A stretch of DNA of 64,000 bases from Candidatus Doudnabacteria bacterium (GCA_963768175.1 CAVYGQ010000001.1:446305-510304), one strand, 5' to 3'. Shown: positions 1,298 to 49,253, counted from the stretch's first letter. Numbers and translations: made by a program. Notes: generated by a model not told the origin, from the letters alone.

Positions 1298-1320
1298 AAA
1301 AATTAAAAACTTAACATTAA

Positions 1321-3355: not shown

Positions 3356-3362
3356 AAGTTTT

Positions 3363-4241: not shown

Positions 4242-4268
4242 AGTAATCGCAAATATACAAATAAGAGT

Positions 4269-4313
4269 GGCGTCATCCTGAGCCCCGAGTGCAGCCAAGG
4301 GGCGAAGGATCTC
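4269..4313. repeat. Family D repeat, half copy
   Basis: ggcgtcatcctgagccccgagtgcagccaaggggcgaaggatctc. Confidence 0.6.
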
Positions 4314-4596
4314 AAAATTCAGATGATAAGTCTTTCCATTCCGGGTTTATACTATTAATTAAGTTAATTTTCTTTTGCCTTGTCCAACCCTTTATTCTTT
4401 TCTCTTCCGCGATGGCTTCTAGTGCGGTTCCAAATTCTTTATAATAAACAAGTTTTGTTACATTATACTTTTTCGTAAAACCCTCTACTAACTTATTCTT
4501 ATGCTGATAATTCCTGTTTACGATACTATTGGTTATACCTGTATAAAGAACCGTATGAACTTTATTTGTCATTATGTAAACATAAAACGATTTCAT
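4312..4596 (-). CDS. Small GIY-YIG nuclease-family protein
   Basis: FYVYIMTN...LYTGIT...R...H motif pattern, 94 aa. Confidence 0.7.
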   Translation of the reverse strand: MKSFYVYIMTNKVHTVLYTGITNSIVNRNYQHKNKLVEGFTKKYNVTKLVYYKEFGTALEAIAEEKRIKGWTRQKKINLINSINPEWKDLSSEF

Positions 4597-4708
4597 AGTT
4601 TGAGATGCTTCACTTCGTTCAGCATGACGCCGTGAAATAGAATCACTTTACTCGATTTTTACTGTTATCCATTTTGTATTTTAATTTATTTTTGTATTTT
4701 CGCGATTA

Positions 4709-5155
4709 CTATCTCATTTTCCCCGCAATATCCTGTTCCTCCGAAACAGTTTTTCTTAACAACTCCTGGACTTCTTTTAGATGCGCCTGAGGGTCTTGGG
4801 GGACCGTAGCTTCAGCCTTAACGGGAGAAGAAAGCTGGGCGTCGGACATTTTACCGTTTGGCATCAGGGCGCGCGTTTCTTTATGGAAAATCAAAATCTT
4901 CGGGCTGGTAAAAAACTTTATAAAATTACCAATGCTGTTGTATACCGGCCGTCCGTTAATTTGGACAAAGGCCATGCCTAGAGCCGGCAAGCCAAAAAGC
5001 ACAAACAGGAAAACCGCGACTAAAATGCTCTTGGTGGCGGAAAAGCCCAAAAAAATAACAATGCCGGCGGCAAAAATTATGCCAAACTGTTTTATTGTCA
5101 AAGGCCCAATAATTTTATCTTCCACCTCGGTAAATTGTGGAACTGGAAATTGCAT
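4709..5155 (-). CDS. Small two-TM membrane protein, PrgI/VirB3-like T4SS component (tentative)
   Basis: VEDKIIGPLTIKQ motif followed by two hydrophobic helices. It lies beside virB4. Confidence 0.45.
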   Translation of the reverse strand: MQFPVPQFTEVEDKIIGPLTIKQFGIIFAAGIVIFLGFSATKSILVAVFLFVLFGLPALGMAFVQINGRPVYNSIGNFIKFFTSPKILIFHKETRALMPNGKMSDAQLSSPVKAEATVPQDPQAHLKEVQELLRKTVSEEQDIAGKMR

Positions 5156-5220
5156 AATCTCACTTTAATTATAACACAGACTATCCTTTATCTTTGATCA
5201 ATAAATCGCTCGCTGCACCC

Positions 5221-5364
5221 GGCGTCATTCTGAGGCCTGAATAAATCTGCCTTTCGACTTTGCTCAAGGCACCCTGAGCGAAGCCGAATGGGTGAAGGCC
5301 GAAGAATCTCTTTGCCCTAGATTTTTAGATCCTTCGGTCGGATGCACTCCCTCAGGATGACGCC
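5221..5364. repeat. Family D MITE-like element (long copy)
   Basis: ggcgtcattctgagg ... cctcaggatgacgcc termini. Confidence 0.7.
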
Positions 5365-5455
5365 AATAGAGAATGCTACGTTTAATAATACCCCATCACA
5401 ATCTCTAAATTTAAAGCCATACTTGTCTGCCATGGGTAAAAGATTAAGAATAAAA

Positions 5456-5495
5456 GATGAAGGATGAAGGATGAAGGATGAAGGATGAAGGATGA
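5456..5495. repeat. Heptanucleotide tandem repeat (gatgaag/gaaggat) x about 5.5
   Basis: Direct tandem repeats are visible immediately 3' of the 5498..6376 gene. Confidence 0.8.
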
Positions 5496-5497
5496 TA

Positions 5498-6376
5498 TCA
5501 ACTTGTCTGTATTTTCGCCAACAAATCAGTAAACTTCTCAAACTCCTCTTTGGTCAAATAATCCCCTGTACCCTCGACATCTAAACTTTCAAAGTCGGGT
5601 TGCCCCGAGAGTAATTTTAAACCCGTGTTAATATAATTTTTATAAGTCTGGCTTTTTTCCAAATTAAAAATTACTTCAAAATACCCGTACTTGGCGACTA
5701 ACGACTTAATCTTTTTTGCCAAGGCGTCCAAAGGCCAAGCCTGTAACATCCGGTTTTCAAACACAGCCAGATCCTGCAAGCCGTTTATTGCCTGTCCATT
5801 TGACGCAACCGGCTTTGAAACCGGCGGCTCGTAGGTAGGCTGTTTTTCCAGTGGAAAATCTTGTCCGGGCAATTTTGAAAGGGAACTTGCAAAACTGGGC
5901 TTTTGCTGAAATGTTGACGGCTTTGCGGCTAACGGGGCAAGCGGCACAGCGGATACGGAGGGAAAAACGGTTTTTGGCTTTGGCGACACCGCTGGCGGAA
6001 CTTTTAATACGGGAGAGGCGGGCTTAACGGTCTGGGGGCTGACAAACGGCTTTTCCCTGATTGGAAAAAAAGGTTTTAGAGCCGCAGCCTGCCCTTTTTG
6101 ATCTTGCCTGATAAATGGTTTTTGTTCTATGATCTGTGATTTGTGATCTATGTTCTGTAATTTATGCCCCTCCTCTAACTCTAACTCCGGATGCCCGGGA
6201 GGCAGCTCTTTTTCCTGAAAAATTGATTTTAAATTAGATGCAAAAATTGACGGCTTCTTTTGGGCAAGCGGCTGCTGGATCTGCGAAGTGGTCTTGGGAG
6301 CCTCATATTTTATAGCGGGAATTTGACCGAATTTCCCTAAGTCTGGCAAATTCATTATGTGGCTCAACTTCGGCAT
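5498..6376 (-). CDS. Hypothetical Pro-rich protein
   Basis: 292-aa ORF co-oriented in the cluster. Confidence 0.5.
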   Translation of the reverse strand: MPKLSHIMNLPDLGKFGQIPAIKYEAPKTTSQIQQPLAQKKPSIFASNLKSIFQEKELPPGHPELELEEGHKLQNIDHKSQIIEQKPFIRQDQKGQAAALKPFFPIREKPFVSPQTVKPASPVLKVPPAVSPKPKTVFPSVSAVPLAPLAAKPSTFQQKPSFASSLSKLPGQDFPLEKQPTYEPPVSKPVASNGQAINGLQDLAVFENRMLQAWPLDALAKKIKSLVAKYGYFEVIFNLEKSQTYKNYINTGLKLLSGQPDFESLDVEGTGDYLTKEEFEKFTDLLAKIQTS

Positions 6377-6619
6377 TTAAGTCTTCTGCTCCATTCCCCT
6401 CCTTTCTAAGGAGGGGCTAGGGGAGGTTATTGTCTTAATTGCTGATTGCTTATTACTTACTGCTGACTGCTGACTGCTTGCCAGTATCTTTTCCAGCTCT
6501 CCCAATTGTTTATCGCTCATTGAATCCAAAAGCGCCAGCCATTCCGTCCGCTCCGAGACCGACAAAATTGCCGAAGACCTAACCAACCCTTTAATTTTTT
6601 CTATTTCCGCGATATTCAT
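6377..6619 (-). CDS. Hypothetical small protein with an in-frame family-B repeat (..ITSPSPSLERRGM..)
   Basis: 80-aa ORF. A 42-nt repeat at 6391..6432 lies inside it. Confidence 0.4.
   Translation of the reverse strand: MNIAEIEKIKGLVRSSAILSVSERTEWLALLDSMSDKQLGELEKILASSQQSAVSNKQSAIKTITSPSPSLERRGMEQKT
6391..6432. repeat. Family B palindromic repeat (ccattcccctcctttctaaggaggggctaggggaggttattg)
   Basis: Identical 42-mer at 7231..7272 and a related compound copy at 33652..33728. Hairpin CCCTCCTT/AAGGAGGG. Confidence 0.75.
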
Positions 6620-6740
6620 CTTATATAAAAGCTAAATTCCTATTTGACAAAAATATTAATATAATATATTTAGTTTTACAGAACCACTCCCGCAAGAAGG
6701 CGGGTTTTTTTATCTGGATAGGCTTTTGCTTTAAGTTTCT

Positions 6741-6832
6741 CCATAATTCCTAACTCCTAACTCCTAACTCCTAACTCCTAACTCCTAACTCCTAACTCCT
6801 AACTCCTAACTCCTAACTCCTAACTCCTAACT
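6741..6832. repeat. Heptanucleotide microsatellite (ctaactc/taactcc) x 13
   Basis: Perfect tandem array overlapping the stop codon of the 6827..8185 gene. Confidence 0.9.
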
Positions 6833-8185
6833 TTTAATTCCGTCCTGCGTCTTCTTCCTAAGTTCCTCCAACTTCCGGTCAATTTCCTGCTGCTTAGATT
6901 GTATATTCTGCGGCGCCGGCTTTTTCTCAAGCAAAGGATTTAAAACAAAAGACGAAGGATTTTTACCCTCTACATTTTCATTTGAAATTGCCTGCCCGCC
7001 AACCGCTGGAGCCGAAGGCGACTGCGGGCGGGGAAATTTGTTATTTGGAATTTTCTCTACCCCCTCTCCCATCTTAAGCCCCGCTGTTGTTTCCTCACTC
7101 CGATCCCTGTTCTTCAAAATATTTTGGATGTTCACCCTGCTGGGCATCACGCCGATACCCGTCCTATCTGTCCAATCAGTCTTATCCATCCTATTTTCTT
7201 CAGCAAACACCGGCTTCTGCAACCCCGCACCCATTCCCCTCCTTTCTAAGGAGGGGCTAGGGGAGGTTATTGGGTTGTTGAAAATTCCTTCCGACCTTCC
7301 GATTTCCGATTTCCGACCTTCTGATATTCCGACATCCGACATTCCGACCTTCCGATTCTCCGATGCGTTCTTTGGCACCGGCACTGCGGGCGGCTGCTGA
7401 TTGGTGATAGGTCGTGGAAGCTCATTTGATGACAATTGAAATTTCTGGGATTGCATATAAGGCAAACCCCCCGTAGTTTTCGTCTGTTCGCCTGGCTCTT
7501 CTGGAATAACTGCGGGCCCCGGCGGCGGAAATAGCAGCCAATCGTAAATTTCCAAAATTTGTTTAAGCACTTCCTTGTCGGTGTTATTAAGTTGGCTAGC
7601 TTGCCTATTATTATTGAAAAAATTAATCTGGTTAAACTTGTCCCTATTTACGGTTAAAGGCTGATTTGTATTGTAACTTTTTAACCAATTTTGAATAGTT
7701 GGCTGAACTGCGCCGACATCTAAACTCAAAGGTTTGTCACCCAACTTTTCTTGATTATTTTCTAAAGAATAAATCCAGCCGCGGCGAGTTTCCTTGTCCG
7801 GTCCAACGCGAAATTCATATATCCCTAATATTTTCTTTAGGCATTCGGAAACATTTACGCCCAATTTTATGGAATCGACTAAATTCTCAGACAAAATATT
7901 TTTACTCTGTTTAAGGGACATGGCCGGCATGGCCTTCCAAGAAAGCACCCACAAAACCGCCATTAATTGGTTATAAATTATTGGGTTAGCTTCCACTTGC
8001 CCCTGATTATCCTTTACCAACTTGTCCAATTGATCATAAAATTCCATTGCGCGCCCAGGCTCCAAATCAAACTCCGCGTCTTGAGCTAACTCAGACAATT
8101 TATCTAAAACACGCTGGTCAGCCAAAGCTTCAGCGTCAAGCAAAAATAAATTTTTTATATTCAATATGTCGGCGATACTAGCCAT
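6827..8185 (-). CDS. Hypothetical protein carrying in-frame repeat insertions (family B and TTCCGA tandem repeats)
   Basis: 452-aa ORF. The IGRSEGI.. and PSPSLERRGM segments are encoded by repeats at 7288..7365 and 7231..7272. Confidence 0.5.
   Translation of the reverse strand: MASIADILNIKNLFLLDAEALADQRVLDKLSELAQDAEFDLEPGRAMEFYDQLDKLVKDNQGQVEANPIIYNQLMAVLWVLSWKAMPAMSLKQSKNILSENLVDSIKLGVNVSECLKKILGIYEFRVGPDKETRRGWIYSLENNQEKLGDKPLSLDVGAVQPTIQNWLKSYNTNQPLTVNRDKFNQINFFNNNRQASQLNNTDKEVLKQILEIYDWLLFPPPGPAVIPEEPGEQTKTTGGLPYMQSQKFQLSSNELPRPITNQQPPAVPVPKNASENRKVGMSDVGISEGRKSEIGRSEGIFNNPITSPSPSLERRGMGAGLQKPVFAEENRMDKTDWTDRTGIGVMPSRVNIQNILKNRDRSEETTAGLKMGEGVEKIPNNKFPRPQSPSAPAVGGQAISNENVEGKNPSSFVLNPLLEKKPAPQNIQSKQQEIDRKLEELRKKTQDGIKS
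7231..7272. repeat. Family B palindromic repeat, intragenic in-frame copy
   Basis: Identical to 6391..6432. Confidence 0.75.
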
Positions 8186-8199
8186 AGTTGTTTTTTAAT

Positions 8200-11100
8200 T
8201 TAAATTGGCATCATATGGTCAATAAACAATTTTTCAGCTGCTGCTCTTTGTACCGGGGTCAAAGTTGATAATTTATTACCAGTTGGCAGGCGACCTGCCA
8301 CCGCTGCTATCTTACCAGTTACCTGGGCGGCAAAATCTGCCCTAGTCACTGCACGGCCTGCGATTGTAGCCGCATCAAAGGCGTTGCCTGCCAACGGTTG
8401 TAATTCTTTTCTTAATTCGGATATTTCTACAGGCGTTAACTTATAATCTTCATCTAGTCTACTAATTACGGTCATGGGGTTATATTTTTCCGAGTATTCG
8501 TCCCTAACTTTTTTGTATATTTCGTCCTTGATTGCGGTAACGTGTGTTACTGGCGCACGGGCAGTTGTAAAAGCAGAACGTATGTTTGCTTCTATTGTTG
8601 CCGGAGAACTTGCCCCTCTATAAACAGCATCAATCGCATTATCTATAACCTTACCTCCTCTTAAAGCGTCAGTTTCTTCCTTCTTTAATCCCAAAGTTTT
8701 GCTATCAATCACTTCAGTTGATACGGTCTTAATGACCGGGGTTACTGTTACTGTAGAGTCACCCAAATGAGCAACGGGGGTTGTTTTGCCGGCGGCATCC
8801 AGCTTTACCACCCTAATTCCTTTCACCTCAATAGGTTGCATATTGGTTAACTGCGCATACATGCTACGTACCAAATCCGGATTTTCTTCATACAAACTCT
8901 GGATACGCTTAACGTCAAGATCGTCTTTGACAATAACCGCTCCAGTGTTTTTATCTATATCATCACTTAAAATCCACTCCTTAGTTCTTCCTTGTGAGAA
9001 ACTCGCCTGCTGCAAAGTAGCGCCGTCAAACATAGACAAAACACCCCGTTGATATTCATCAAGCTCCCCACTGGTTCTTCCATACATTTGATCCTTAATT
9101 TCATTTACAGCGTCAATATTTCCACCTGCGTCCAGTTTCGCGCGGAGAGTCACCATATTATGTGGGGCAATTTGCGAGCGGGCACGCCCGCTGACTTTTT
9201 TCAGCTCGCCCACCGCATAATTAGTTTGCCAAGTATTTTTTAGCTTACCTCCCTTAATAGTTCTGCCTCCTACTCCTTTGGCATCGCCAACCAACTCCAT
9301 CCCCCGCTTAAACCTTTTTGAATCATTGTCATAATACGCATGCCCCAGATACTCATAGTGCCCTGTGGACTTGCCAAGTTCTTCAAGATCTTCAGCCATC
9401 AAGCGCTGGGCTTGTTCATCGTCGCCCAAATAACCGTACAAAAACCGGTTTAAAACTTCTGCGCTATAAAAAGTGCCATCGTCATCAGCATACTGGTCTG
9501 CAAAATGCTTTTTCCTAAGTAGGTCGTCCATATATCCTTGTTTGGCAGCTGCCAAGACAATAGCGCGGCGCCTTCTCTTGCCTTCTTCTCCGCCTAACTT
9601 TTCGGCATCTGCGGCCGCATCCATTAAACTTTCTTTACGCATGGTAGAATAGTCCTGAACCAAAGCATTTTCGTCTTTTCTTTCCGCAAATTGCCTATAA
9701 GGAATTTTTAACTTGCCCCTGGTTAAAAACCGTTCTGACATTTCACGCCCGCCTGCCGTAGCCGTGCCTTCTGCTTGATGCTTTAATTCCTCTGCGCGCT
9801 GTTGCCAGCCCTTAAAAAAAGCATCTGGGTTAGAAAGCAAAAATCCGGTTTTTTTCAAAAAGCCCGGTTTATGCTCGCCTTCCTGCTCTAAAAGCGAAGA
9901 ACCAATTTCCTGTCTCTTTCTGTTTACCCAGCCAACTCCTCTTCCAGCCAAAAACGCTGCACCCTGAAACGGAGCAAAGATTCCCTTTCTGGCTATGTCG
10001 GTTATCCCTTGGGCACCGTAGACGCCGGCCAAGGTGGCTACTTTTAAGGAGGCGATTAAAAAAACCAACAATAAAATATTACTTCCCAAGGTCACAATCA
10101 GGCTGGACAAACCGTTTTGTCCATTAAAAATGCTGGCGTTATTGGCCGCAATCTGCAATTGAGAATTGACAGTTGCATTGGTTGCCATTAAAGCTGCCAT
10201 GTTCAGGAAAAAGGCCATTATTGGTGTAAAAAAGGCGTATTTTAAAAACTCCTTCCACCATTTCTCCCTATACTGGGCCGTACTGGGCAAAACCCCAACG
10301 GCATAAGCCACGGGAGAAATCATTAGCAAAAGCCATAACATTACAATCCGGATTACCAAAAACGCCGCAATAGCGCCAAACACGGCAAGCGAGCCCAAGC
10401 TCATAGCCACCCAAAATACAGACGCAACTAATCCTCCAATACTACTATTTACCGCCGATGCGTTAGCGTTCTGCTGCCCTTGGAGGTAGTTCATTAATGT
10501 ACTATTATTTGTAGTCATTAATTTATAAGCCAACCCGTTTACTGACGCAGCGTCGGCAGGCAAAAACTGCGCCTGCACGGTGTCCGCCACGGCTAAAATA
10601 GACTGGCCAATGACCAAACTAAAGTTAATCAGCAAAGCCGCGATAATTAGTTGCACCAATAAATGCCGCGCTTTATAACTTTCCACGCGGAACAACGTGG
10701 CCATGGCAATAATAATCAATGCCACTATAAAAAATATATCGCACAGATTCCGAATGGTTTCCCAACCCGAATAAATAACCGCGACAAAAGTATCCTGATA
10801 AGCGTGAATACCAAGCACAGCAACAATCACTGGTGAAACAAGCAGGAAAAAAATTCCGTAAATAAGCTGCTGAATTGAAGCTAAGACAAAAGCGACTATC
10901 TCGTTTAATAATTGCATCAGCTTGTCGGTTACCCCCGGACCTGCATTGAGATTGTTTCCGGAACCTACGGCGCTGCCATATCCGGGAACGCATCCAGAAG
11001 GTATATTGGCTCCGGTGGTCGGATCGGTACCGGTGCAAGCAAGAGGCGGGCCTGTAACTTTATTGGCGTTTGCCTGGGTGTCATAAAGCTGGACATAAAA

Positions 11101-11850
11101 ACTATTACCACCTTTGAAATAAGTATTATAGGCGTGCGCGCCGGTAAGGGAATTGAAGTCTGTTGATAAATTTTGAAAATCAATTTCGGGGTAAGCATAA
11201 GCCTGGTTCGTTCCGCTATTTGGATCGGTCCCGTTATTAAGTTGGGTTATGCCTAAATCGGTAAAATTGGTCTTATCAATAGTAAATGTGTAATCAAAAA
11301 CAGGCTGCCCGGCTTGAAAGGTTGGGCCGCTAATTTTATTATTACTCTGAGTCGCATCAAAGTAGTTGTTTGGGTTACTGCACACATTGGAAATTAAACC
11401 AGTGCCTATGGGCCCCAATGACTGATTTCCACAAATTTGGGAAGTATTACTAGGCGTTAACACTGCTCCAAAACCTAACAGCTTTCCTGTATCCGGTGTT
11501 CCGCCTGGAGGTGTTGTGGTGCCGATATTAGTACTGTTAAAAGTCAGTGTCGGGGGACTTACAAGGGTAACTATAACCTCTATCGTAGAACTTCCATCCT
11601 GTTGGCCAAGACGAACGAAATTTGTAGTCTGGCCATTAATCTTTATGTCTGTTTTTAAAACTATGTCATTAAAATTACAAGTTTGTGCATTACCTTGGCT
11701 GGTGCCGCAGGTGCTATCAGCGGAAACGGTTATGGGAGTAAGTATCAACAAAACAAAAACCGCTAAAATAAAAGAAAACCACGGCCAGAGGCATTTGGCG
11801 GCAGTTTTGGTTGGGTTGGATTTATTTAAAACTTTTGGTTTCAAATGCAA
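8200..11850 (-). CDS. Giant polytopic membrane protein, VirB6/TrbL-like T4SS channel candidate
   Basis: 1216 aa. N-terminal signal/TM, then about 270 aa Thr/Gly/Asn-rich ectodomain, then about 8 TM helices (residues about 320-640), then about 560 aa charged cytoplasmic tail. Confidence 0.4.
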   Translation of the reverse strand: MHLKPKVLNKSNPTKTAAKCLWPWFSFILAVFVLLILTPITVSADSTCGTSQGNAQTCNFNDIVLKTDIKINGQTTNFVRLGQQDGSSTIEVIVTLVSPPTLTFNSTNIGTTTPPGGTPDTGKLLGFGAVLTPSNTSQICGNQSLGPIGTGLISNVCSNPNNYFDATQSNNKISGPTFQAGQPVFDYTFTIDKTNFTDLGITQLNNGTDPNSGTNQAYAYPEIDFQNLSTDFNSLTGAHAYNTYFKGGNSFYVQLYDTQANANKVTGPPLACTGTDPTTGANIPSGCVPGYGSAVGSGNNLNAGPGVTDKLMQLLNEIVAFVLASIQQLIYGIFFLLVSPVIVAVLGIHAYQDTFVAVIYSGWETIRNLCDIFFIVALIIIAMATLFRVESYKARHLLVQLIIAALLINFSLVIGQSILAVADTVQAQFLPADAASVNGLAYKLMTTNNSTLMNYLQGQQNANASAVNSSIGGLVASVFWVAMSLGSLAVFGAIAAFLVIRIVMLWLLLMISPVAYAVGVLPSTAQYREKWWKEFLKYAFFTPIMAFFLNMAALMATNATVNSQLQIAANNASIFNGQNGLSSLIVTLGSNILLLVFLIASLKVATLAGVYGAQGITDIARKGIFAPFQGAAFLAGRGVGWVNRKRQEIGSSLLEQEGEHKPGFLKKTGFLLSNPDAFFKGWQQRAEELKHQAEGTATAGGREMSERFLTRGKLKIPYRQFAERKDENALVQDYSTMRKESLMDAAADAEKLGGEEGKRRRRAIVLAAAKQGYMDDLLRKKHFADQYADDDGTFYSAEVLNRFLYGYLGDDEQAQRLMAEDLEELGKSTGHYEYLGHAYYDNDSKRFKRGMELVGDAKGVGGRTIKGGKLKNTWQTNYAVGELKKVSGRARSQIAPHNMVTLRAKLDAGGNIDAVNEIKDQMYGRTSGELDEYQRGVLSMFDGATLQQASFSQGRTKEWILSDDIDKNTGAVIVKDDLDVKRIQSLYEENPDLVRSMYAQLTNMQPIEVKGIRVVKLDAAGKTTPVAHLGDSTVTVTPVIKTVSTEVIDSKTLGLKKEETDALRGGKVIDNAIDAVYRGASSPATIEANIRSAFTTARAPVTHVTAIKDEIYKKVRDEYSEKYNPMTVISRLDEDYKLTPVEISELRKELQPLAGNAFDAATIAGRAVTRADFAAQVTGKIAAVAGRLPTGNKLSTLTPVQRAAAEKLFIDHMMPI

Positions 11851-12177
11851 GGGTTTAAAAGTTTACCCCGTTGCATTTTCCTTTCATCAAAATGTCCCTA
11901 ATTTAACAATAACTGGATATATTAAAGGAAAATCTTGATTATTATTGAGACTAAATGCTACCGGGGCTTAATAAACTGGGCTTTTATATTGCGTATTTTC
12001 ACTAAAATTATACCACAAACCCCTAAAACCGCAAAATTTTTGGCTTTGTGGATATTTCCCGGATTTCCGGCTGATTTGATTGCAAAATTCTGTCCGCTTT
12101 CGCCGGAACACCAATTTGGTTCTGCCGGAACAATCAATCTAAAACCCGTCAATCAAATTATGCTGACATAAAAACCC

Positions 12178-12213
12178 CATGTTAGCATAAAATGCGGCCG
12201 CATTTTTTACTAA
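12178..12213. repeat. Family E palindrome (TTAGCATAAAATGCGGCCGCATTTT..), NotI-core hairpin
   Basis: Related copies at 12777..12816 and 47180..47213 flank gene ends. Confidence 0.7.
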
Positions 12214-12224
12214 CAAATTATCAA

Positions 12225-12776: not shown

Positions 12777-12816
12777 AATGTTAGTATAAACTGCGGCCGC
12801 ATTTTATGTCAACACC
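12777..12816. repeat. Family E palindrome
   Basis: atgttagtataaactgcggccgcattttatgtcaac. Confidence 0.65.
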
Positions 12817-27752: not shown

Positions 27753-28481
27753 TTAGTAAATTTTTCGCCAGCGTTTAAAAGCTTTAACATCCGAAGAATT
27801 CAAATTAAACCATTCACCCCTCTTCCGTTTAGATGTAAATCTAGTATGCCAGTATTTCTCAATACCATCCATATCGTCTGTTTCTATCTCATGAATCAAT
27901 TTAAACGGTTCCGACCCTAGTAATGTAATGTCTTCTCGACGACGGTTTGCGTCCTTTGCTTTACCAATTTTATAATCTCCATGTTGCTTGCCTAAATAAA
28001 CAAAACCTTTAGATACTAATGGATCCTCAGAGGTCCTGTCTAGATTTTCAAATCCCTCAAAAACTAAATTACATATTTCTACAATGTCCTTATATTTTTT
28101 TTTGTTTTCAACGAATTCAAGAATAGTTTTTGCCAGATTTCTTGTTAAACCAAGTTTTTTATAAAATGTTGCTGAGTTGGGAAAGCTCAAATCATTGTGA
28201 TGTTTAACATCTAAATCACCTCTCGTTGGCCATTTACGCTTTTCACGAATAACAGTTATAAAAATTTCACATAATTGATCATGACTATATTTAGTTTTAT
28301 CAAACTTATTAGGAGTTAATCCTGCTTCACGAACGAGTTCGCCGTAATTAGACCAGTGTTTCATTCGTTCATATCTATTGACATCAGTGTTTTCGTAAAA
28401 GCTTGACTCGCTTGGTGTCTTGCCGTCATTCAACTGAGTATACTTTTGGATTTCCTTTATTATCTCATCTTTTGTAAACAT
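27753..28481 (-). CDS. T5orf172/GIY-YIG-like (DUF4357-type) domain protein
   Basis: C-terminal YKIGKAKD..RR...L.....EPFKLIHEIETDD...IEKYWHTRF...R.RGEWF pattern. Confidence 0.55.
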   Translation of the reverse strand: MFTKDEIIKEIQKYTQLNDGKTPSESSFYENTDVNRYERMKHWSNYGELVREAGLTPNKFDKTKYSHDQLCEIFITVIREKRKWPTRGDLDVKHHNDLSFPNSATFYKKLGLTRNLAKTILEFVENKKKYKDIVEICNLVFEGFENLDRTSEDPLVSKGFVYLGKQHGDYKIGKAKDANRRREDITLLGSEPFKLIHEIETDDMDGIEKYWHTRFTSKRKRGEWFNLNSSDVKAFKRWRKIY

Positions 28482-28531: not shown

Positions 28532-28605
28532 TGGCTGGGGTGCCAGGATTCGGACCTGGGATCAGCGGTTCAGAGCCGCTTGCCTTACCGCTTGGCTACA
28601 CCCCA
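28532..28605 (-). tRNA. tRNA-Gln (anticodon CTG), CCA encoded
   Basis: Manual fold. Acceptor TGGGGTG/CACCCCA, D arm GCC-AAGCGGTAA-GGC, anticodon stem AGCGG/CCGCT with loop CTCTGAA, T arm CCAGG-TCCGAAT-CCTGG. 74 nt. Confidence 0.8.
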
Positions 28606-29343: not shown

Positions 29344-29889
29344 ATGTCAAAACTCTCTCCACAAACAAAAACTTTCATCGCCCTTTTTTGTTTTGCCGTT
29401 TTTGGAACGTATGTGTGTATAATTCTTTGGTCCAATTTGGCCGGATCTGTTCCCAACACGTCCTACAACACAAACACCCTGACAAAAAAAGTCTCGGCCC
29501 AAACTTTACCCGCTTTGGTTCCAGTCCCCGCAGTGGACACGACCGGATGGAATACATACAACAATGAACAATACCAATTAAGTTTTTTATATAAACCAGG
29601 CTGGAAAGTTTTACCGGCTATAAATAAAAATGGCTTTACGGTTTTGCAGGTAGACCCGGGACCAAAATTTTACAATATTAAAATTTACATCAACCCCAAA
29701 GAATTTTACATTATGGATGGCCTGCCCACCAAGACCGAAACCATTGGCGGCCAAACGGCTCTAAATGCCAACAACTCGCTGTATGGGATTGTGGCGAACA
29801 ATTTGCACTATACTTTTGACGTAGGCCTGTCCATGAGCCTGGTGCCGGATTTTAACGCTTTGGTGCATTCGGTAAAATTTGGGAATTAG
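29344..29889 (+). CDS. Hypothetical membrane-anchored protein
   Basis: 181-aa ORF with an N-terminal TM. Confidence 0.5.
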   Translation: MSKLSPQTKTFIALFCFAVFGTYVCIILWSNLAGSVPNTSYNTNTLTKKVSAQTLPALVPVPAVDTTGWNTYNNEQYQLSFLYKPGWKVLPAINKNGFTVLQVDPGPKFYNIKIYINPKEFYIMDGLPTKTETIGGQTALNANNSLYGIVANNLHYTFDVGLSMSLVPDFNALVHSVKFGN

Positions 29890-29897
29890 TGGAAAAA

Positions 29898-29928
29898 CAG
29901 GGGACACCTCTGGAAGAGGTGTCCCCTG
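29898..29928. terminator. Family A palindrome (CAGGGGACACCTCT ggaag AGGTGTCCCCTG) acting as a hairpin after the gene end, followed by TTTTC
   Basis: Perfect 14-bp inverted repeat directly after the stop at 29889. Confidence 0.55.
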
Positions 29929-29938
29929 TTTTCATTGA

Positions 29939-32336: not shown

Positions 32337-32343
32337 AATACAA

Positions 32344-32380
32344 CAAAGAGACTCTTTGCGCGACGCAAAGAGTCTCTTTG
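32344..32380. terminator. Family F hairpin (CAAAGAGACTCTTTGCGC / GCGCAAAGAGTCTCTTTG)
   Basis: Inverted repeat after the hppA stop. A second copy after glnII at 49206..49242. Confidence 0.6.
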
Positions 32381-32467
32381 TATAACTATTTTATATAAAT
32401 AAAAAACGAGCGGCTACAGTGACGCAGTCGCCCGGGGTGGCCAGCCCCATAAGTAATAGCCAATGCT

Positions 32468-33145: not shown

Positions 33146-33208
33146 AGCTGGAAGAAGTGTCCCCTCTTCCAGTTTAATTTTATGGTATAATAAACAATTT
33201 TTACACAA
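33146..33208. repeat. Family A element, extended 63-nt form (hairpin CTGGAAGAaGTGTCCCCTCTTCCAG plus tttaattttatggtataataaa)
   Basis: Near-identical 63-mer at 41120..41182. Both lie immediately 3' of minus-strand genes and contain TGnTATAAT-like boxes. Confidence 0.65.
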
Positions 33209-34427
33209 TTACCCCGCCGCCCACGCATTCCTTGCCTTTGTATAATACCAAACTTTGCCCCGAGGCGACGGCTTTTTGGGGTTTGTTGAATATAACGCGA
33301 TAATGGTTCTTGCCGATTAGTCTTATTGTTAATGGCACCAGTTCTCCTTGGTGGCGGAAACGCCCAAGTAAAGAAATTTTGATCCCTGAGCCAGTCGAAC
33401 GGGTCAAAATTTCTTTTGGGGAACTTTGCCCTTCCACAAGGTCAGGGGCAAATTTCCCACTGATCCAATTCACGCTATGAATCTGTACTTCTTTTGTCAA
33501 CAAATTTTTGTCGTCCACATTATTCGTAACATACAGAGTGTTTATCTTTAAATCCTTTTTTACCACATAATATGGGCCGGTGCCACCAACTTTAATCCCC
33601 TGCCGCTGGCCGATGGTGTAATTAAAAAGACCATTATGTTCACCAATAACCCCACCTAGCCTCCCCTTTGCAAGGGGAGGGATTACTGCAGATTCCCCTC
33701 CTTGCAGAGGAGGGGTTAGGGGAGGTAATAAAACTATCGGCCCCGGCTTTGCCTTCAGTTTCTGCTCCAAAAAATCTTTTAGCCTAATTTTGCCCACAAA
33801 GCACAGCCCCATGCTTTCTTTCTTCTCGGCGTTCGGCAAACCGATTTTCCGCGCAAGCGCACGGACGGCGGGCTTTTTCATGGCGCCAATCGGAAAAAGT
33901 AAATGCGGCAATTGCTCCGATTTGATGTTATAAATAAAATAAGTTTGGTCTTTGAATTCATCCGCGCTCCTCATCAGCCTAAACTCGCTAAAACCGCGGC
34001 CGCGGTTTAAAGAAGTATTTTTTTCTACCTGCGCGTAATGTCCGGTTGCCAAATAATCAAACCCGTTTTTCATCGCCCAGTTATAAAGCAGCTTAAATTT
34101 AATTTCCTTATTGCACATGACGTCCGGGTTCGGCGTACGGCCTTTTTTATATTCGTCAAAAAAATAACGCATTACGGTTTTCTGGTACTGCTTTTCAAAA
34201 TCCAAAGTGTGCAAGGGGGTGCGCAAAAACGCGGCCACGCGCAAGGCGTCTTGGCGATCCACAAGCCATGGGCATTCGTTCTTAATCAAACCGGCGGTGG
34301 AAGACCAGTTCTTCATAAACGCGGCTTCAACTTCGTAGCCCTGTTTTAACAAAAGATATACCGAAACCGCACTGTCAATGCCGCCGCTTAGAGCGATTAG
34401 CACCTTCTTTTTTCGAATTTTCTTCAT
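33201..34427 (-). CDS. mnmA: tRNA-specific 2-thiouridylase MnmA with an in-frame family-B repeat insertion
   Basis: LSGGIDSAVS PP-loop and a conserved C-terminal domain. The extra LLPPLTPPLQGGESAVIPPLAKGRLGG segment is encoded by the repeat at 33652..33728. Confidence 0.9.
   Translation of the reverse strand: MKKIRKKKVLIALSGGIDSAVSVYLLLKQGYEVEAAFMKNWSSTAGLIKNECPWLVDRQDALRVAAFLRTPLHTLDFEKQYQKTVMRYFFDEYKKGRTPNPDVMCNKEIKFKLLYNWAMKNGFDYLATGHYAQVEKNTSLNRGRGFSEFRLMRSADEFKDQTYFIYNIKSEQLPHLLFPIGAMKKPAVRALARKIGLPNAEKKESMGLCFVGKIRLKDFLEQKLKAKPGPIVLLPPLTPPLQGGESAVIPPLAKGRLGGVIGEHNGLFNYTIGQRQGIKVGGTGPYYVVKKDLKINTLYVTNNVDDKNLLTKEVQIHSVNWISGKFAPDLVEGQSSPKEILTRSTGSGIKISLLGRFRHQGELVPLTIRLIGKNHYRVIFNKPQKAVASGQSLVLYKGKECVGGGVIV
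33652..33728. repeat. Family B compound palindromic repeat inside the mnmA CDS
   Basis: cctagcctcccctttgcaaggggaggg ... gattcccctccttgcagaggaggggttaggggagg. Confidence 0.7.
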
Positions 34428-39127: not shown

Positions 39128-39796
39128 TTAATAAGTCAATTTAACATAAAAAGTGAGAAATGTATCCTGTTGATTTTTATCTTTTGGTGGGCGCTTGGAC
39201 ATTTCCAAAATTTTAAAACCGGCACCCCTTAAAATTTCCGCAAATTCGTCCTGCAAATAATAAACAAAATGCCTTTTCTGCCCGCTCTGCTGCCATTCAA
39301 CCATTTTTTCACCAACCCCTGCCTTAATAGCAATAAACCCCACTCCTCCGGGTTTTAATAAAGCTTTAATCTTTTGCAAGATTAGCTTAATTTTTGTTTT
39401 TGGAATATGCAAAAGGGAACAAGCCGACCAAAAGCCGTCAAAACTTTGCGGGGGAAAGTTTAAGTCGTAAAAACTCTGATTTAAGAATAAAGCCTTAGGG
39501 TTTTTGGCGGAGGCTAATTTTATCATCGCTTTTGAAATATCAACTCCCACGTAATAGTATCCATTACCCAAAAACCACAGGCTGTCCCGCCCGCTACCGC
39601 ATCCCAAGTCTATAATTTTACCGCTGGGCAAATATTTTTGGAATTTTCCATACTGATCTTGCCAAAAATCATCACGCCGAGTGAAACTCCAGGCGCTTGC
39701 AATTTTATTGTAAGTATTGAGAGTAACCTGCTCTTCGGCCGAAAGCATAAAATATTTTAGTTCTACAATTGCCGCTTTACTTAAGTATGGCGGCAA
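39128..39796 (-). CDS. Class I SAM-dependent methyltransferase
   Basis: IIDLGCGSGRDS motif I and LKPGGV post-I motif. Confidence 0.8.
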   Translation of the reverse strand: MPPYLSKAAIVELKYFMLSAEEQVTLNTYNKIASAWSFTRRDDFWQDQYGKFQKYLPSGKIIDLGCGSGRDSLWFLGNGYYYVGVDISKAMIKLASAKNPKALFLNQSFYDLNFPPQSFDGFWSACSLLHIPKTKIKLILQKIKALLKPGGVGFIAIKAGVGEKMVEWQQSGQKRHFVYYLQDEFAEILRGAGFKILEMSKRPPKDKNQQDTFLTFYVKLTY

Positions 39797-41066
39797 TCCC
39801 CTCTCGCGATGCTTCTGTTTCTGTAGATTTTGCCAAATTTTTTACTTTGTACTTGCCACTTTTTACTTCCTCCTCCCCCACCACCAGCACGAACGGGATT
39901 TTTTCCTTGTCCGCGGTTTTTACCTGGGCGGAAACTTTGCGGTCGGTTAAATCGACAGCGACATTCACGCCTTGCTTGCGGAGATCGGCGGCTAACTGAT
40001 TTGCGGCTTCCAGATAATTTTCAAGGTGGCAGACGTACAACTTTACCAGCGGATGATATTCCGGCAACAAACCGTGAGTCTCCAAAAAATCGCGGGTGGT
40101 TACGTCTCCCCAGCCAAACCCTACTCCCGGCACTTTTTCCACGCCGAAAATCCCTACCAAATCATCGTACCTCCCGCCGCCGAACAGCGCGCGGTTGTTG
40201 ACAGGGCTGGTATCGTAAAGTTCAAACACGATGCCGGTATAATAATCAAAACCGCGGACCAAAGTCGGATCGTAAACCACGTTCCTAACCCCCGAGGATT
40301 CCAGTTCCCTTAATAAATTATCCAGCTCTTTTGCCCCCTCGCTGTGCGGAATCTTTTCCCCTAGTTCGTCTAAACTTTTCACATACAGCACTTCCATCAG
40401 CATTTTGGTTTTATCGCCCAAGATTTCTTCCGCCCGCTTTAAAAATTCTTCTTTCTTCATTTTACCCATTCGGTCAATCAATTTAGAAGCCTTGTGGGCC
40501 TGCCCGGAATTCAATTTCAGATACTCATCCAACAAATGATTAAGCAACTTGCGGCTGTTTATCCTAATTTCAAAACTTTCATCGCTGGCGCCAAAAGCCT
40601 TCATTATGCCGTAAGCCAAGCTGATAATTTCCACATCGGCGTCAACGGATTCCACGCCAAAAATATCGCAATTAAGCTGCCAATGCTCGCGCAAGCGGCC
40701 ACGCTGGGGACGTTCGTAGCGGAACAAATTGGGGATGGAATACCAGCGTAAAGGAAAAGTCAGCTCTTTGCGCTTTTGGGCAACCATGCGGGCAACTGTG
40801 GGCGTCATTTCCGGACGGATGGTCACGTCGCGCCCGCCGCGGTCAATAAAAGAATAAGTTTGCTCGTTGACAATTTCCTCGCCGGTTTTTGCCCGGTAAA
40901 GTTCGGTCTCTTCTAAAATAGAAGCGCCATACTCCAAATACCCGTAGCTTTCGGCCACTTTGCGCCAAATACTAAAAATATAATTCTGCACAAATTGGTC
41001 TTGGGGATAAAAATCCCGCGTGCCTTTATAAGGCTCCAGTGAGAGTTTTTTTGCTTTTGTTTCCAT
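39777..41066 (-). CDS. hisS: Histidine--tRNA ligase
   Basis: Class II aaRS motifs, YKGTRDFYP N-terminus, C-terminal anticodon-binding domain. The 3' end overlaps the downstream methyltransferase by 20 nt. Confidence 0.9.
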   Translation of the reverse strand: METKAKKLSLEPYKGTRDFYPQDQFVQNYIFSIWRKVAESYGYLEYGASILEETELYRAKTGEEIVNEQTYSFIDRGGRDVTIRPEMTPTVARMVAQKRKELTFPLRWYSIPNLFRYERPQRGRLREHWQLNCDIFGVESVDADVEIISLAYGIMKAFGASDESFEIRINSRKLLNHLLDEYLKLNSGQAHKASKLIDRMGKMKKEEFLKRAEEILGDKTKMLMEVLYVKSLDELGEKIPHSEGAKELDNLLRELESSGVRNVVYDPTLVRGFDYYTGIVFELYDTSPVNNRALFGGGRYDDLVGIFGVEKVPGVGFGWGDVTTRDFLETHGLLPEYHPLVKLYVCHLENYLEAANQLAADLRKQGVNVAVDLTDRKVSAQVKTADKEKIPFVLVVGEEEVKSGKYKVKNLAKSTETEASREGIAAILK

Positions 41067-41119: not shown

Positions 41120-41182
41120 CTGGAAGAGGTGTCCCCTCTTCCAGTTTAATTTTATGATATAATAAATAATTTTTACGCCAAC
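41120..41182. repeat. Family A element, extended form (second copy)
   Basis: ctggaagaggtgtcccctcttccagtttaattttatgatataataaataatttttacgcc. Confidence 0.65.
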
Positions 41183-41616
41183 AAATTCAAATCCCCGTTT
41201 AAAACCACTGGCTGCATTCCTAAAACCTCTTCTTTCCAGGCTGTTTCGGGAATCGGATTTAACAGATAAATTTTTTTGCCGAGATGAAAGGCCAAACCCA
41301 TTTCCATTAAAGTATTGGGGCCAATATAATTGGTAATGCCATTTTTGTCAAAATTCGCGACCAGTATGGCCTCCGACCATTCCACTTTGTTAAAATGGGC
41401 ATGAATCCTCAAGGAATGATTTTTTAAAAATGCCGGGTCGCTAAACGGCTGGGTTTTTTTAAACTTATGGTAATCCGCGGTTTGCCAGAGTTTCCCGTCG
41501 CCATCCGTAAATTTTGTCGGCAACGATTTGGCTTCATGCCCCAATTTGTTTAATTGTTCGGCCACGGCTTCCATCTCCTTAACAAAAGCCGCACTGCCAC
41601 AAATGGTGATTTTCAT
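41173..41616 (-). CDS. Nucleoside 2-deoxyribosyltransferase-like Rossmann protein
   Basis: MKITICGS...EAILVANFDKNG....EMGLAFHLGKKIYLL pattern. Confidence 0.4.
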   Translation of the reverse strand: MKITICGSAAFVKEMEAVAEQLNKLGHEAKSLPTKFTDGDGKLWQTADYHKFKKTQPFSDPAFLKNHSLRIHAHFNKVEWSEAILVANFDKNGITNYIGPNTLMEMGLAFHLGKKIYLLNPIPETAWKEEVLGMQPVVLNGDLNLLA

Positions 41617-43255: not shown

Positions 43256-43295
43256 CTTGTTGACTTTTTGCGCGGCCGCGCAAAAAGTCAACAAG
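43256..43295. promoter_or_regulatory. Perfect 40-nt palindrome CTTGTTGACTTTTTGCGCGGCCGCGCAAAAAGTCAACAAG immediately 5' of the tRNA-Gly locus
   Basis: Exact reverse-complement symmetry. Contains TTGACT -35-like hexamers on both strands. Confidence 0.4.
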
Positions 43296-46161: not shown

Positions 46162-47163
46162 ATGATAAAAAAACCGTCAAGTTTATATCACCCCCTAACC
46201 CCCTCTTACATTAAGAGGGGGAAACTCTTGGTTGTCGGCAGCGTGGCGTTTGACAATATACAAACGCCGTTTGGGAAAATAAGCAAAACTTTGGGCGGCA
46301 GCGCCAGCTATTTTTCTTTGGCCGCGAGTTTTTTTACCAAGCCTTACGTGGTGGCCGTGGTGGGGAATGATTTTACCTATAAATACAAGGAAATTTTAAA
46401 AAAGAAAAAAATTGACTTATCGGGATTAGAAACAACCAAAGGCCAAAGCTTTCACTGGGGCGGCAAGTATAGCTTTGATTTAAACAACCGCGATACCCTG
46501 TTTACGCATTTAAACGTCTTTGAACATTTTAAACCCAAACTTTTAGAACACCATAAAACCGCCTCTTATGTGTTTTTAGGTAACATCCACCCAGAACTTC
46601 AGCTTGACGTTTTGAGCCAAATAAAAAAACCAAAACTGGTGGGGCTGGATACCATGAATTTTTGGATAGAAAAAGCGCCACAGGAGCTGGCTAAAGTGTT
46701 AAAGCTGACGGATATTTTTGTGATAAACGATTCCGAAGCGCGGGAACTTTCCGGAGAACATAACTTGATGAAGGCCGCCAGAAAAATAATCAAAATGATG
46801 CCCAAAGGCAGAGGTGTCCCCTCTGCAACAGAGGGGACACCTCTGCCACCCGTGCTAATTATCAAGCGCGGGGAATATGGACTGCTGATGTTCGGCAAAA
46901 ACCAGATTTTCCACTTGCCCGGCTTCCCGCTTGAAGACGTTATAGATCCCACCGGCGCGGGCGACAGCTTTGCCGGCGGACTTTTTGGCTACCTAAGCAA
47001 AACCGAAGACAGCTCCTGGGAAAACCTAAAACGAGCATGTGTAGCCGGTTCGGTATTAGCCAGTTTTGGCGTGGAAAAGCTCGGCACCCAAAGGTTACAA
47101 GAAATAACCCAAAACGACATTAACGAGCGTTTTGGGGAATTTAAAAAATTGACAGATTTTTAA
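46162..47163 (+). CDS. PfkB-family carbohydrate kinase (ribokinase-like) carrying an in-frame 41-nt family-A palindrome (KGRGVPSATEGTPLP)
   Basis: DPTGAGDSFAGG signature near the C-terminus. The perfect palindrome GGCAGAGGTGTCCCCTCTGCAACAGAGGGGACACCTCTGCC at 46807..46847 stays in frame. Confidence 0.8.
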   Translation: MIKKPSSLYHPLTPSYIKRGKLLVVGSVAFDNIQTPFGKISKTLGGSASYFSLAASFFTKPYVVAVVGNDFTYKYKEILKKKKIDLSGLETTKGQSFHWGGKYSFDLNNRDTLFTHLNVFEHFKPKLLEHHKTASYVFLGNIHPELQLDVLSQIKKPKLVGLDTMNFWIEKAPQELAKVLKLTDIFVINDSEARELSGEHNLMKAARKIIKMMPKGRGVPSATEGTPLPPVLIIKRGEYGLLMFGKNQIFHLPGFPLEDVIDPTGAGDSFAGGLFGYLSKTEDSSWENLKRACVAGSVLASFGVEKLGTQRLQEITQNDINERFGEFKKLTDF

Positions 47164-47179
47164 GCTTACTAAAAAATTT

Positions 47180-47213
47180 GTTAGCATAAAATGCGGCCGC
47201 ATTTTATGCTAAC
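47180..47213. terminator. Family E perfect palindrome GTTAGCATAAAATGCGGCCGCATTTTATGCTAAC after the kinase gene
   Basis: 34-nt perfect inverted repeat, 17 nt after the stop. Confidence 0.5.
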
Positions 47214-47339
47214 AGTCCTGTTTAACAAATATTATAAACGCCGTGGCAGGTGTTTTTTTGTTTTGACCAAAACTATTATCAAGAATACAATAAACGTATG
47301 TTGGCCTTCTGGCCAGCAATACATCGCTAGCTGATGCTA

Positions 47340-49193: not shown

Positions 49194-49205
49194 AATAACC
49201 AATTA

Positions 49206-49242
49206 ACAAAGAGACTCTTTGCACTGCGCAAAGAGTCTCTTT
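49206..49242. terminator. Family F hairpin CAAAGAGACTCTTTGCACTGCGCAAAGAGTCTCTTTG followed by TTTTTTT. Bidirectional between glnII and proA
   Basis: Inverted repeat plus U-tract. Confidence 0.75.
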
Positions 49243-49253
49243 GTTTTTTTAAT

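Follow-up and report, generated by a model that had tools for sequence, protein, structure and literature searches.

A perfect 41-nt palindrome in frame in a PfkB-family kinase gene of Candidatus Doudnabacteria: a probable low-copy repeat tolerated in permissive loops

How does a perfect palindrome come to lie inside the reading frame of an enzyme gene? Palindromic repeats that keep the reading frame have long been known as a peculiarity of Rickettsia and of a few bacteria besides. The question was raised by 64,000 nt of Candidatus Doudnabacteria DNA (GCA_963768175.1, CAVYGQ010000001.1:446305-510304; hereafter the window, meaning this whole stretch), in which a PfkB-family kinase gene carries a 41-nt palindrome, named A1 here. 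An earlier interpretation made from the DNA letters (the sequence-only reading) had compared it to Rickettsia palindromic elements (RPEs). That A1 is a DNA-level palindromic repeat family, and not a protein motif, is supported. We consider it, with a probability of roughly 0.6, to be a low-copy repeat resembling RPEs and repetitive extragenic palindromes (REPs) that is tolerated in permissive loops. The same sequence at non-homologous loci, pairs of filled and empty sites, a common reading frame and a location in loops lead to this mobile-repeat reading. The kinase gene and the two coding copies in the window are the following.

Positions 46162 to 47163, plus strand: host gene, a PfkB-family kinase (PF00294), nucleoside-kinase-like.
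Positions 46807 to 46847, plus strand: A1 copy in the kinase, GGCAGAGGTGTCCCCTCTGCAACAGAGGGGACACCTCTGCC, a perfect 41-nt palindrome with a net insert of 39 nt (13 codons).
Positions 313 to 351, minus strand: second A1 copy, a perfect 39-nt palindrome (GTAGAGG...CCTCTAC) with 19-nt arms 1 nt apart.

The kinase palindrome was confirmed at its reported place. Its 19-nt arms are 100% complementary around a 3-nt centre, and it is read as KGRGVPSATEGTPLP without a break in the open reading frame (ORF) 46162..47163, adding the peptide GRGVPSATEGTPLP (an example of a peptide spanning the insert is GVPSATEGTPLPPVLIIK). The sister copy does lie in frame on the minus strand of a Gly-rich protein, as had been reported, but it extends from 313 to 351 and not from 314 to 350; in this open minus-strand frame it reads SSRGVPSAAEGTPLP and encodes RGVPSAAEGTPLP at residue 317 of its host protein, P0121. 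Both copies share one reading frame, RGVPSAxEGTPL, and the palindrome yields the same peptide from either strand, again as proposed. Stop codons are absent from all three frames of the element on both strands; the peptides of the remaining frames, QRCPLCNRGDTS and AEVSPLQQRGHLC, contain Cys and are less loop-like. Each arm is itself a small hairpin, GCAGAGG-TGTCC-CCTCTGC, a 19-nt unit with a 7-bp stem and a 5-nt loop, and A1 can be read as a head-to-head dimer of this unit. As RNA the kinase copy folds with -42.3 kcal/mol (z = -8.1). No T-run follows either coding copy and a terminator consensus scan flagged neither; a hairpin in the kinase mRNA that has no U-tract should therefore not terminate transcription.

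The likeness of the copies exceeds chance, as the sequence-only reading had assumed. The 13-nt core GAGGTGTCCCCTC has 8 matches at up to 2 mismatches in the window where 0.62 are expected, a count reached in none of 100 shuffles of the window, and GGGGACACC has 7 matches against 0.30 expected. An assembly artefact as source of the kinase insert was excluded, because the insert recurs in four independent assemblies (ENA ERZ27237183, NCBI GCA_021791515.1 and GCA_038249015.1, and Logan SRR19962012).

The likely true start of the kinase is a TTG at 46228, giving a 311-aa product 100% identical to P0001, which is encoded on a 949-kb contig. Its closest homologues all come from metagenome-assembled genomes (MAGs) of Patescibacteria/Doudnabacteria. 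An AlphaFold (AF2) model of the kinase reached a predicted local distance difference test score (pLDDT) of 87.5. In this model the insert (residues about 213-230) forms a coil between helix 202-212 and strand 231-235; with a pLDDT of 64-68 this loop is the sole internal low-confidence stretch, the rest of the model lying above 90. The closest solved structure, the Chlorobium nucleoside kinase 3kd6 (48% identity, TM 0.96), has a short loop at the insert site (MGPK-TLIIK), and the HMMER alignment shows a gap of 15 residues exactly there. The 13-residue insert thus maps to a surface loop, a point that the sequence-only reading had proposed to check. It had also been placed just upstream of a conserved motif; this does not hold, since about 30 residues separate it (here counted as residues about 218-231) from DPTGAGD (262-268).

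Comparison with relatives shows an insertion. The locus L046 (metagenome Ga0182027), from the nearest relative available, is syntenic with 37-55 kb of the window and holds 12 real orthologues at 73-90% identity; across these 12 genes the sole indel of more than 4 aa is the 13-aa/39-nt kinase segment. The empty site reads ATG ATG AAA AAA AAT CCA ATC CTA in L046 and ATG ATG GGC AAA AAC TCT ACG CTG in L047, and a third close relative, L048, carries a different hairpin at the site, CCCTCCCCT-cata-AGGGGAGGG. Filled and empty sites are paired in two clades, the window with L046/L047 and the carrier L003 with L049, which is empty at the A1 site and 83% identical to L003. The loop of the nearest relatives is the family-wide ancestral GKNST-type 5-mer, and the empty sites hold no half-site that could serve as a copying template. 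Relative to its close orthologues and to the solved structure, the kinase segment is a discrete insertion.

The sole other sizeable indel seen among the syntenic genes is a 15-18-aa segment of the histidyl-tRNA synthetase (HisRS, 39777-41066), VLYVKSLDELGEKIP at 40347-40391, which is absent from L048 and L001; it is not palindromic and folds with -8 to -10 kcal/mol.

That the insertion is lineage-specific, as first proposed, is true in part, and half of what had been named as refuting it was observed: most orthologues, including the nearest, are empty, whereas two orthologues of other lineages at 66-68% identity, P0023 (FK3.bin112) and P0029 (La4 Doudnabacteria), carry the same peptide in the same loop, being the only two others to do so among the 120 best kinase homologues. 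Their DNA holds the same palindrome, with differences at 2-3 central bases and a degenerate right end, CCTCCTCCC; across the window, L001 and L003 the arms are invariant and only the 2-3-nt centre varies. A neighbour-joining tree of the 120 homologues put the three carriers in three clades, and the pairwise identities of a neighbouring gene, phosphoenolpyruvate carboxylase (PEPC), agree with those of PfkB (window with L046, L047 and L048; L003 with L049). The left junctions of the PfkB copies differ between lineages (CCCAAA versus GGTTTT before the element), and the CCTCC right end of L001 and L003 is a subfamily trait found at two other loci as well. Clade placement, left junctions and the CCTCC subfamily favour at least two independent insertions at the kinase loop. 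A recombination patch common to the window and L001 was rejected: the 'PK' before the insert also occurs in the Chlorobium loop (MGPK) and is ancestral-like. Insertion at this loop is recurrent or very unevenly retained.

Between carriers, conserved four-fold-type residues had a third-codon-position identity of 0.34-0.47 in the host gene outside the element, against 10-11 of 12 such positions within it. With synonymous sites near saturation outside and all those of the arms identical, the element is either much younger than the lineages or constrained in its nucleotides. The second option leads to an alternative in which an old insertion, inherited vertically and lost in many lineages, is kept for a nucleotide-level function as a structured RNA or DNA site, for instance one of RNase III-type processing, a hairpin at which ribosomes pause, or a binding site of a dimeric protein (in one variant, 13-nt inverted repeats around a variable 7-nt spacer, an architecture like lox, FRT or dif). 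Such a function would suit the extremely stable hairpin, arms that stayed invariant in the window, L001 and L003 while host synonymous sites are about 34-47% identical, and the filling of the kinase loop in three lineages and of PolA in two (67% identity). It fits poorly with the nearest relatives, which in two clades are empty and hold the ancestral GKNST-type 5-mer, and with the presence of the element in unrelated genes, a 5' untranslated region (UTR) and intergenic DNA. Moreover, what is kept is the sequence rather than the structure: no covariation was seen, while an orthologous hairpin of a relative of A1 (A3, below) does show a compensatory change. As the element also matches no Rfam family, its left junctions differ and the CCTCC subfamily recurs elsewhere, we regard this alternative, the main rival, as unlikely.

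Under the preferred reading, a mobile repeat, the same sequence should stand at unrelated places. Among 185,579 species genomes the perfect dimer was found at only 6 loci, of which MAG FK3.bin112 holds four and a Doudnabacteria MAG and a Saccharibacteria MAG one each, and a relaxed metagenome scan gave 35 loci, only about 5 of which are the element of the Candidate Phyla Radiation (CPR). The CPR copies outside the kinase and P0121 are the following.

L006 and L013: PolA gene, in two lineages that are 67% identical.
L008: endonuclease IV (Nfo) gene.
L012, metagenome Ga0182027: Tgt gene; a copy 2 nt shorter with its second half frame-shifted, near the N-terminus.
L010: 5' UTR of the dihydroorotate dehydrogenase (DHODH) gene.
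L036/L014 and L009: intergenic DNA.

Most dimers found are intragenic. In PolA the copy lies in the linker between the 5'-nuclease and the 3'-5' exonuclease domains, as read from ORF translations. Each of the five independent host genes (PfkB, the Gly-rich protein, PolA, Nfo and Tgt) enters the element in the RGVPS frame, for which we calculate a chance probability of about (1/3)^4 = 0.012. Since all frames are open, yet the RGVPS frame is used in all five hosts, selection on the peptide is indicated. This bears on the idea that the segment is not translated at all and that ribosomes skip the hairpin through programmed bypassing, which is known from T4 gene 60 and from the GC-rich 'byp' elements of Magnusiomyces mitochondria. 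A strong hairpin inside an ORF and a CCC codon both before and after the element in the window and L001 would suit bypassing. However, whole codons, no stops and the same frame in five hosts form a pattern expected only if the peptide is made and selected, and L003 has no matching take-off and landing codons, so that we consider bypassing extremely improbable.

The remaining roughly 30 metagenome loci were rejected as family members; they belong to organisms with a GC content of 0.54-0.73 and carry different hairpins that share 11-nt arms. Among them is a REP-like family from an organism of about 58% GC, of the form GAGGGTGTCCCCTCC-TAAGTTA-GGAGGGGACACCCTC, with the 11-nt arms of the CPR element and stop codons in the loop (L015, L017, L019-L021, L023-L025, L027, L029, L033, L038, L039 and L043); it comes mostly from metagenome Ga0134121 and lies mostly at ORF ends. 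This family is probably unrelated to the CPR element, though the shared arm is curious. The Tgt protein of L012 bears, near its C-terminal half, another palindromic-looking insert that is unrelated to the first, RVPFPSPSGRGIKGEGSQ, and appears to have been colonised by two hairpin families.

In a peptide census, a 42-aa concatemer shared words with 399 clusters in the protein databases, none at E <= 10, which suggests that coding copies are not numerous; a 50-aa segment of the kinase gave no word matches there. The dimer was absent from an IMG/VR scan, and a phage origin was rejected, as 19 single-arm matches fell into three unrelated phage groups, at about chance level, and were unrelated terminators. 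The Rfam scan of the window returned two tRNAs and nothing else.

The second host in the window, P0121, is an 888-aa protein whose gene starts at 1297 on the minus strand and continues beyond the first letter of the window. Conserved domains at the N-terminus and, as a membrane domain, at the C-terminus enclose a long low-complexity middle rich in Gly, Ser, Thr and Pro; the palindrome lies in the low-complexity middle, and its peptide is absent from both detectable homologues, P0122 and P0123. The gene is a real one and its protein is conserved. It stands directly downstream of a type-IV-secretion-like cluster (window 1-12000) with a VirB4/TraG-type ATPase (1502-3355), a PrgI-like protein (4709-5155) and a 1216-aa protein (8200-11850) that matches TrbL/VirB6 weakly.

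Three further sites in the window had been taken for intergenic copies of the same element resembling terminator hairpins. The 13-nt core is indeed common to them and they are terminator-like; their architectures differ, so they are not the same element.

Positions 29894 to 29932, unstranded: A2, AAAACAGGGGACACCTCT gga AGAGGTGTCCCCTGTTTT, with the same core in opposite arm order and A-run/T-run flanks.
Positions 41120 to 41176, minus strand: A3, a 57-nt 3'-UTR module that starts at the stop codon of a 147-aa gene (41173..41616).
Positions 33148 to 33204, minus strand: A3 paralogue, a 57-nt 3'-UTR module that starts at the stop codon of mnmA (33201..34427).

A2 begins 5 nt after the stop of the ORF 29344..29889 and folds with -33.4 kcal/mol (z = -6.7); it looks like a bidirectional intrinsic terminator, missed by the terminator consensus scan because its T-run is absorbed into the stem. 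The module at 41120 consists of an AT-rich spacer and a hairpin, CTGGAAGAGG-TGTCC-CCTCTTCCAG (41120-41144), with one core. In the paralogue a single G-to-A change in the stem creates a mismatch (hairpin 33148-33172), and at both A3 sites the single core forms the top of a 10-bp stem. The 41120 hairpin has an orthologue in L046, in which GAGG/CCTC became GATG/CATC: the stem is kept by the compensatory change and the core is destroyed. This compensatory change indicates that the A3 sites are ordinary structured 3' ends under structural selection. A2 and A3 seem to be tied to the coding palindrome by a common hairpin unit of 15-18 nt, and are not the same element. The AT-rich parts of the 57-nt modules (33173-33204 and 41145-41176) each contain a perfect extended -10 on the plus strand (TGGTATAAT and TGATATAAT, respectively), which points antisense into the upstream minus-strand gene and is kept in L046.

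Other palindromes recur at gene ends in the window. A second family of 36-40 nt, centred on GCGGCCGC, is found at 12180-12215, 12779-12814, 43256-43295 and 47179-47214, in the form TGTTAGCATAAAATGCGG joined to CCGCATTTTATGCTAACA or the variant CTTGTTGACTTTTTGCGCGG joined to CCGCGCAAAAAGTCAACAAG; every copy lies between genes, one of them 16 nt past the stop of PfkB, and the family is terminator-like by the consensus scan and has -35/-10-like hexamers as well. The perfect palindrome (A)ACAAAGAGACTCTTTGC(G)...GCAAAGAGTCTCTTTGT has two copies, 32343-32381 and 49205-49245, at the ends of the H+-pyrophosphatase and glutamine-synthetase-like genes. From these repeats the genome appears to reuse identical hairpins as terminators.

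Such observations could be taken to mean that there is no mobile family, that the likenesses are those of GC-rich terminators in an AT-rich genome, and that the coding copies arose by local template-switch (quasi-palindrome) mutation. The vertically inherited A3 hairpin with its compensatory change, the several other repeated perfect-palindrome families at gene ends and the occurrence of the same 11-nt arms in phage terminators and in hairpins of high-GC organisms that are unrelated agree with this view. Nevertheless, separate origins in situ cannot account for identical stretches of 33-41 nt at eight or more non-homologous loci of several genomes, and the empty sites offer no half-site for copying. 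By our calculation about 0.002 exact 13-mers are expected by chance in 64 kb, and 0 of 100 shuffles reached 8 cores. We consider this explanation improbable overall; it is effectively refuted for A1, and it may hold for the relationship of A1 to A2 and A3.

The distribution of the core bears on yet another explanation, by which the core is a DNA-uptake-type signal, or is spread by recombination, with motif alleles imported preferentially by CPR cells that take up DNA. Known signals of this kind, the DNA uptake sequences (DUS) of Neisseria and the uptake signal sequences (USS) of Haemophilus, are short words that occur about once per kb, in both orientations and mostly as single copies. Uptake would explain why the same site is used, why the sequence is invariant, why inverted pairs stand at terminators and why one frame is preferred; the core is invariant across lineages in the same loop, an inverted-pair terminator lies at 29894, the frame is biased, and PolA and Nfo are repair and replication hosts. 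The density is nevertheless too low and too patchy, with 8 cores in the 64-kb window, all in hairpins, none in the 21-kb L046, and one element each in L001 (18 kb) and L003 (11 kb). The conserved unit is a 19-nt arm and the whole palindrome, not a word of 10-12 nt, and the flanks of the three PfkB copies, at about 65% identity, are too diverged for homologous recombination. An uptake signal is thus quite improbable.

We return to A1 as a mobile repeat and compare it with known systems. REPs are palindromic units of 20-40 bp with stems of 5-13 bp, short loops and an unpaired GTAG or CGTC tag, found mostly as head-to-head dimers and for the greater part downstream of genes; the short RPE-4 and RPE-6 of Rickettsia are CGTC-type REPs, and intragenic REP dimers that code for extra residues, many of them in replication and repair genes, are known from Opitutus terrae and Rickettsia conorii (Di Nocera et al., 2013, PMC3733652). 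A1 resembles REPs in its palindromic unit, in its head-to-head dimer, in the copies inside ORFs that add residues, in its replication and repair hosts (here PolA and endonuclease IV) and in inserts proposed to be neutral in loops or linkers; single units and head-to-head dimers both occur, A1 being a dimer and A3 a single unit with a longer stem. REP dimers are the closest in anatomy to A1. The tag is lacking, however: the ends are GGCAG, ACAG or GGAAG, and the one copy of 11 that starts with GTAG (at 313) has it base-paired in the stem. Neither is A1 of high copy number and mostly extragenic like REPs, since the window has 2 dimers and 3 relatives in 64 kb and most dimers are intragenic. The palindrome here is, furthermore, perfect, belongs to Patescibacteria and codes for 13 aa, compared with 20-30 aa in the known intragenic dimers.

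RPE-1 is a Rickettsia-specific imperfect stem-loop of 105-146 bp with inverted repeats of 12 bp at its termini (Ogata et al., 2000; reviewed in PMC2229807), with 19 intragenic copies in one genome that diverge together with their host (PMC2229807). Like RPEs, A1 lies between genes and in frame in conserved genes at tolerated positions, in a host-dependent bacterium with a reduced genome; the protein is functional or nearly so, the insert is viewed as selfish or neutral, and some sites are common to several species. It differs in its length of 39-41 bp, in its perfect structure with 19-nt arms and in its Patescibacteria/Doudnabacteria-like host, which sets it apart from the published description of RPEs; it is also low-copy and nucleotide-identical across lineages. 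Rickettsia has hundreds of repeat copies. The sequence-only reading was right to match A1 to RPEs in its in-frame behaviour and its tolerance in a loop, and wrong as to membership, for which length, host and copy number do not agree; its idea of a selfish, RPE-like palindrome within a surface loop has the right spirit and is too specific, and it overlooked that other lineages carry the element in that loop, that the intergenic sites are arranged differently and that the loop is a general hot spot. A1 is not a member of the RPE or tagged-REP families, though it behaves alike.

Mitochondria offer another parallel. Their repetitive hairpin-forming elements, or GC clusters, are GC-rich and 17-84 bp long (PMC2800124), and in Nematomorpha mitochondria coding palindromes have arms that code for conserved protein parts (PMC6649704). 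As with A1, mitochondrial hairpins invade AT-rich compact genomes, occupy intergenic DNA and variable parts of protein and rRNA genes, are kept in transcripts and are distributed patchily, suggesting repeated invasions; they differ in being organellar and of other sequence families, and the Nematomorpha arms are not an added loop. MITEs (miniature transposable elements with inverted repeats) measure 70-300 bp, bear the terminal inverted repeats of a parent insertion sequence (IS) and produce target-site duplications; A1 is too short, has a direct repeat at 2 of 8 copies, and no parent IS was seen. An intrinsic terminator combines a GC-rich hairpin at a gene end with a U-tract, which describes A2 (29894-29932) and the A3 hairpins (33148-33172 and 41120-41144), where T-rich sequence follows, and does not describe the two coding A1 copies.

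Taken as a mobile repeat, A1 would be a very short non-autonomous element forming a small family in a few related Patescibacteria (Doudnabacteria-like) lineages. Copies would be pasted into new places at the DNA level, perhaps by a hairpin-recognising transposase of the HUH/Y1 type, which is our guess. A genic copy would survive only if it lengthens the gene by complete codons, if the place where it lands is a permissive surface loop or linker, and if it is read in the Gly/Pro/Ser/Thr-rich RGVPSAxEGTPL frame, so that frame and site bias would stem from selection. In the kinase the helix-to-strand loop would be lengthened by 13 residues, most likely with neutral or slightly harmful effect on the enzyme, and the intergenic relatives, with the same hairpin unit otherwise arranged, would act as terminators or 3'-UTR hairpins.

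Several results weigh against this proposal. For a mobile family the dimer has a very low copy number (6 among 185,579 species genomes), and decayed copies were not seen, in DNA scans that could detect perfect arms only. No transposase, RAYT or IS200/IS605 gene was found in the 64-kb window, with 61 sequences scanned against Pfam; RAYTs are the Y1/HUH transposases that mobilise REPs and whose genes are flanked by these repeats. There is no consistent target-site duplication, a flanking direct repeat occurring in 2 of 8 copies (CCA..CCA and TTG..TTG), and a preference for A/T-run targets was rejected (4 of 11 copies, against a background of 0.36). The synonymous-site identity of the arms could also mean functional constraint on the nucleotides, and occupation of the kinase loop in three lineages and of PolA in two is unexpected for rare random insertions.

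The kinase loop is itself a site of frequent insertion. In an alignment of the 120 CPR PfkB sequences only two internal regions have recurrent insertions: the A1 loop, with a basal length of 5-7 aa, and a turn about 20 aa downstream, with a basal length of 4 aa. Of the homologues, 38 have a loop of at least 12 aa at the first site and 23 at the second, and 47 have one at either site. At least ten types of insert peptide were found at the two loops, and all five types examined as DNA were hairpins.

L050: GCTAGAGGGGCATCCTCT...AGAGGGTGCCCCTCTAGC, a sister core whose arms stand in the reverse order.
L051: GCAGATGGGCATCTTCTGCA-tc-TGCAGAAGATGCCCATCTGC, which agrees with the A1 element in its termini and its centre.
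L052: AGATGGGAATCTTCCAG-ttta-CTGGAAGATTCCCATCT, with modules common to an intergenic hairpin of L046.
L048: second-site insert CCCCTCCTTT-caa-AGGAGGGG; the first site holds the CCCTCCCCT-cata-AGGGGAGGG hairpin given above.
L049: an 84-nt insert, ATGTCATTGCGAG...CTCGCAATGACAT.

The window insert is thus one example of how hairpin inserts generally come and go at the permissive loops of these genomes. With at least ten hairpin families in two loops, 39% of the 120 orthologues affected and nucleotide identity across lineages at about 66% protein identity, an active process comes into view, in which Patescibacteria have a sequence-specific hairpin-insertion process that repeatedly targets the same loop-coding sites; we hold this only tentatively. 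In the window the second hot spot is the GKNQ turn (46897-46908), which is empty. The hairpin-derived inserts at the second site measure 12-44 aa in the 23 of 120 homologues (P0004, P0017, P0042, P0094 and P0120 among them) and include a widespread GTCATTGCGAG...CTCGCAATGAC family with peptides like EIVASS...TPRNDM.

If A1 is a repeat of this kind, its minimal form (13 codons, a perfect palindrome) in the CPR extends the phenomenon of in-frame repeats to another reduced-genome, host-dependent group. Should hairpin turnover at hot spots be general, it would explain a part of the so far unexplained protein insertions of the CPR, provide a natural map of permissive enzyme loops and call for caution in gene calling, where 5'-UTR hairpins are translated as N-terminal extensions. 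Were insertion targeted, a large share of the protein-loop indels of the CPR would stem from tiny palindromes that can be translated, and from their conservation one would expect an enzyme dedicated to them and acting in trans, or an uptake or recombination drive, not yet described. The nucleotide identity across lineages makes a specific mover and a retained function testable against each other.

The kinase gene offers an example of the gene-calling problem. Its 5' UTR holds a perfect hairpin at 46199-46221, CCCCCTCTTA-cat-TAAGAGGGGG, whose 3' arm, the Shine-Dalgarno-like AAGAGGGGG, stands 6 nt ahead of the TTG start; with this motif in a hairpin arm, the ribosome-binding site of the kinase would be sequestered. 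A longest-ORF call translates the hairpin as HPLTPSYIKRGK. Comparable N-terminal 'extensions' occur in 15 of the 120 kinase homologues and are probably gene-calling artefacts. Another PfkB, that of L050, carries a member of the same hairpin family in frame at its second loop.

Elsewhere in the window, a gene with a MUG113/T5orf172 domain (GIY-YIG-like nuclease; 27753-28481) adjoins a tRNA gene (28535-28605), and the two may be a mobile-element remnant.

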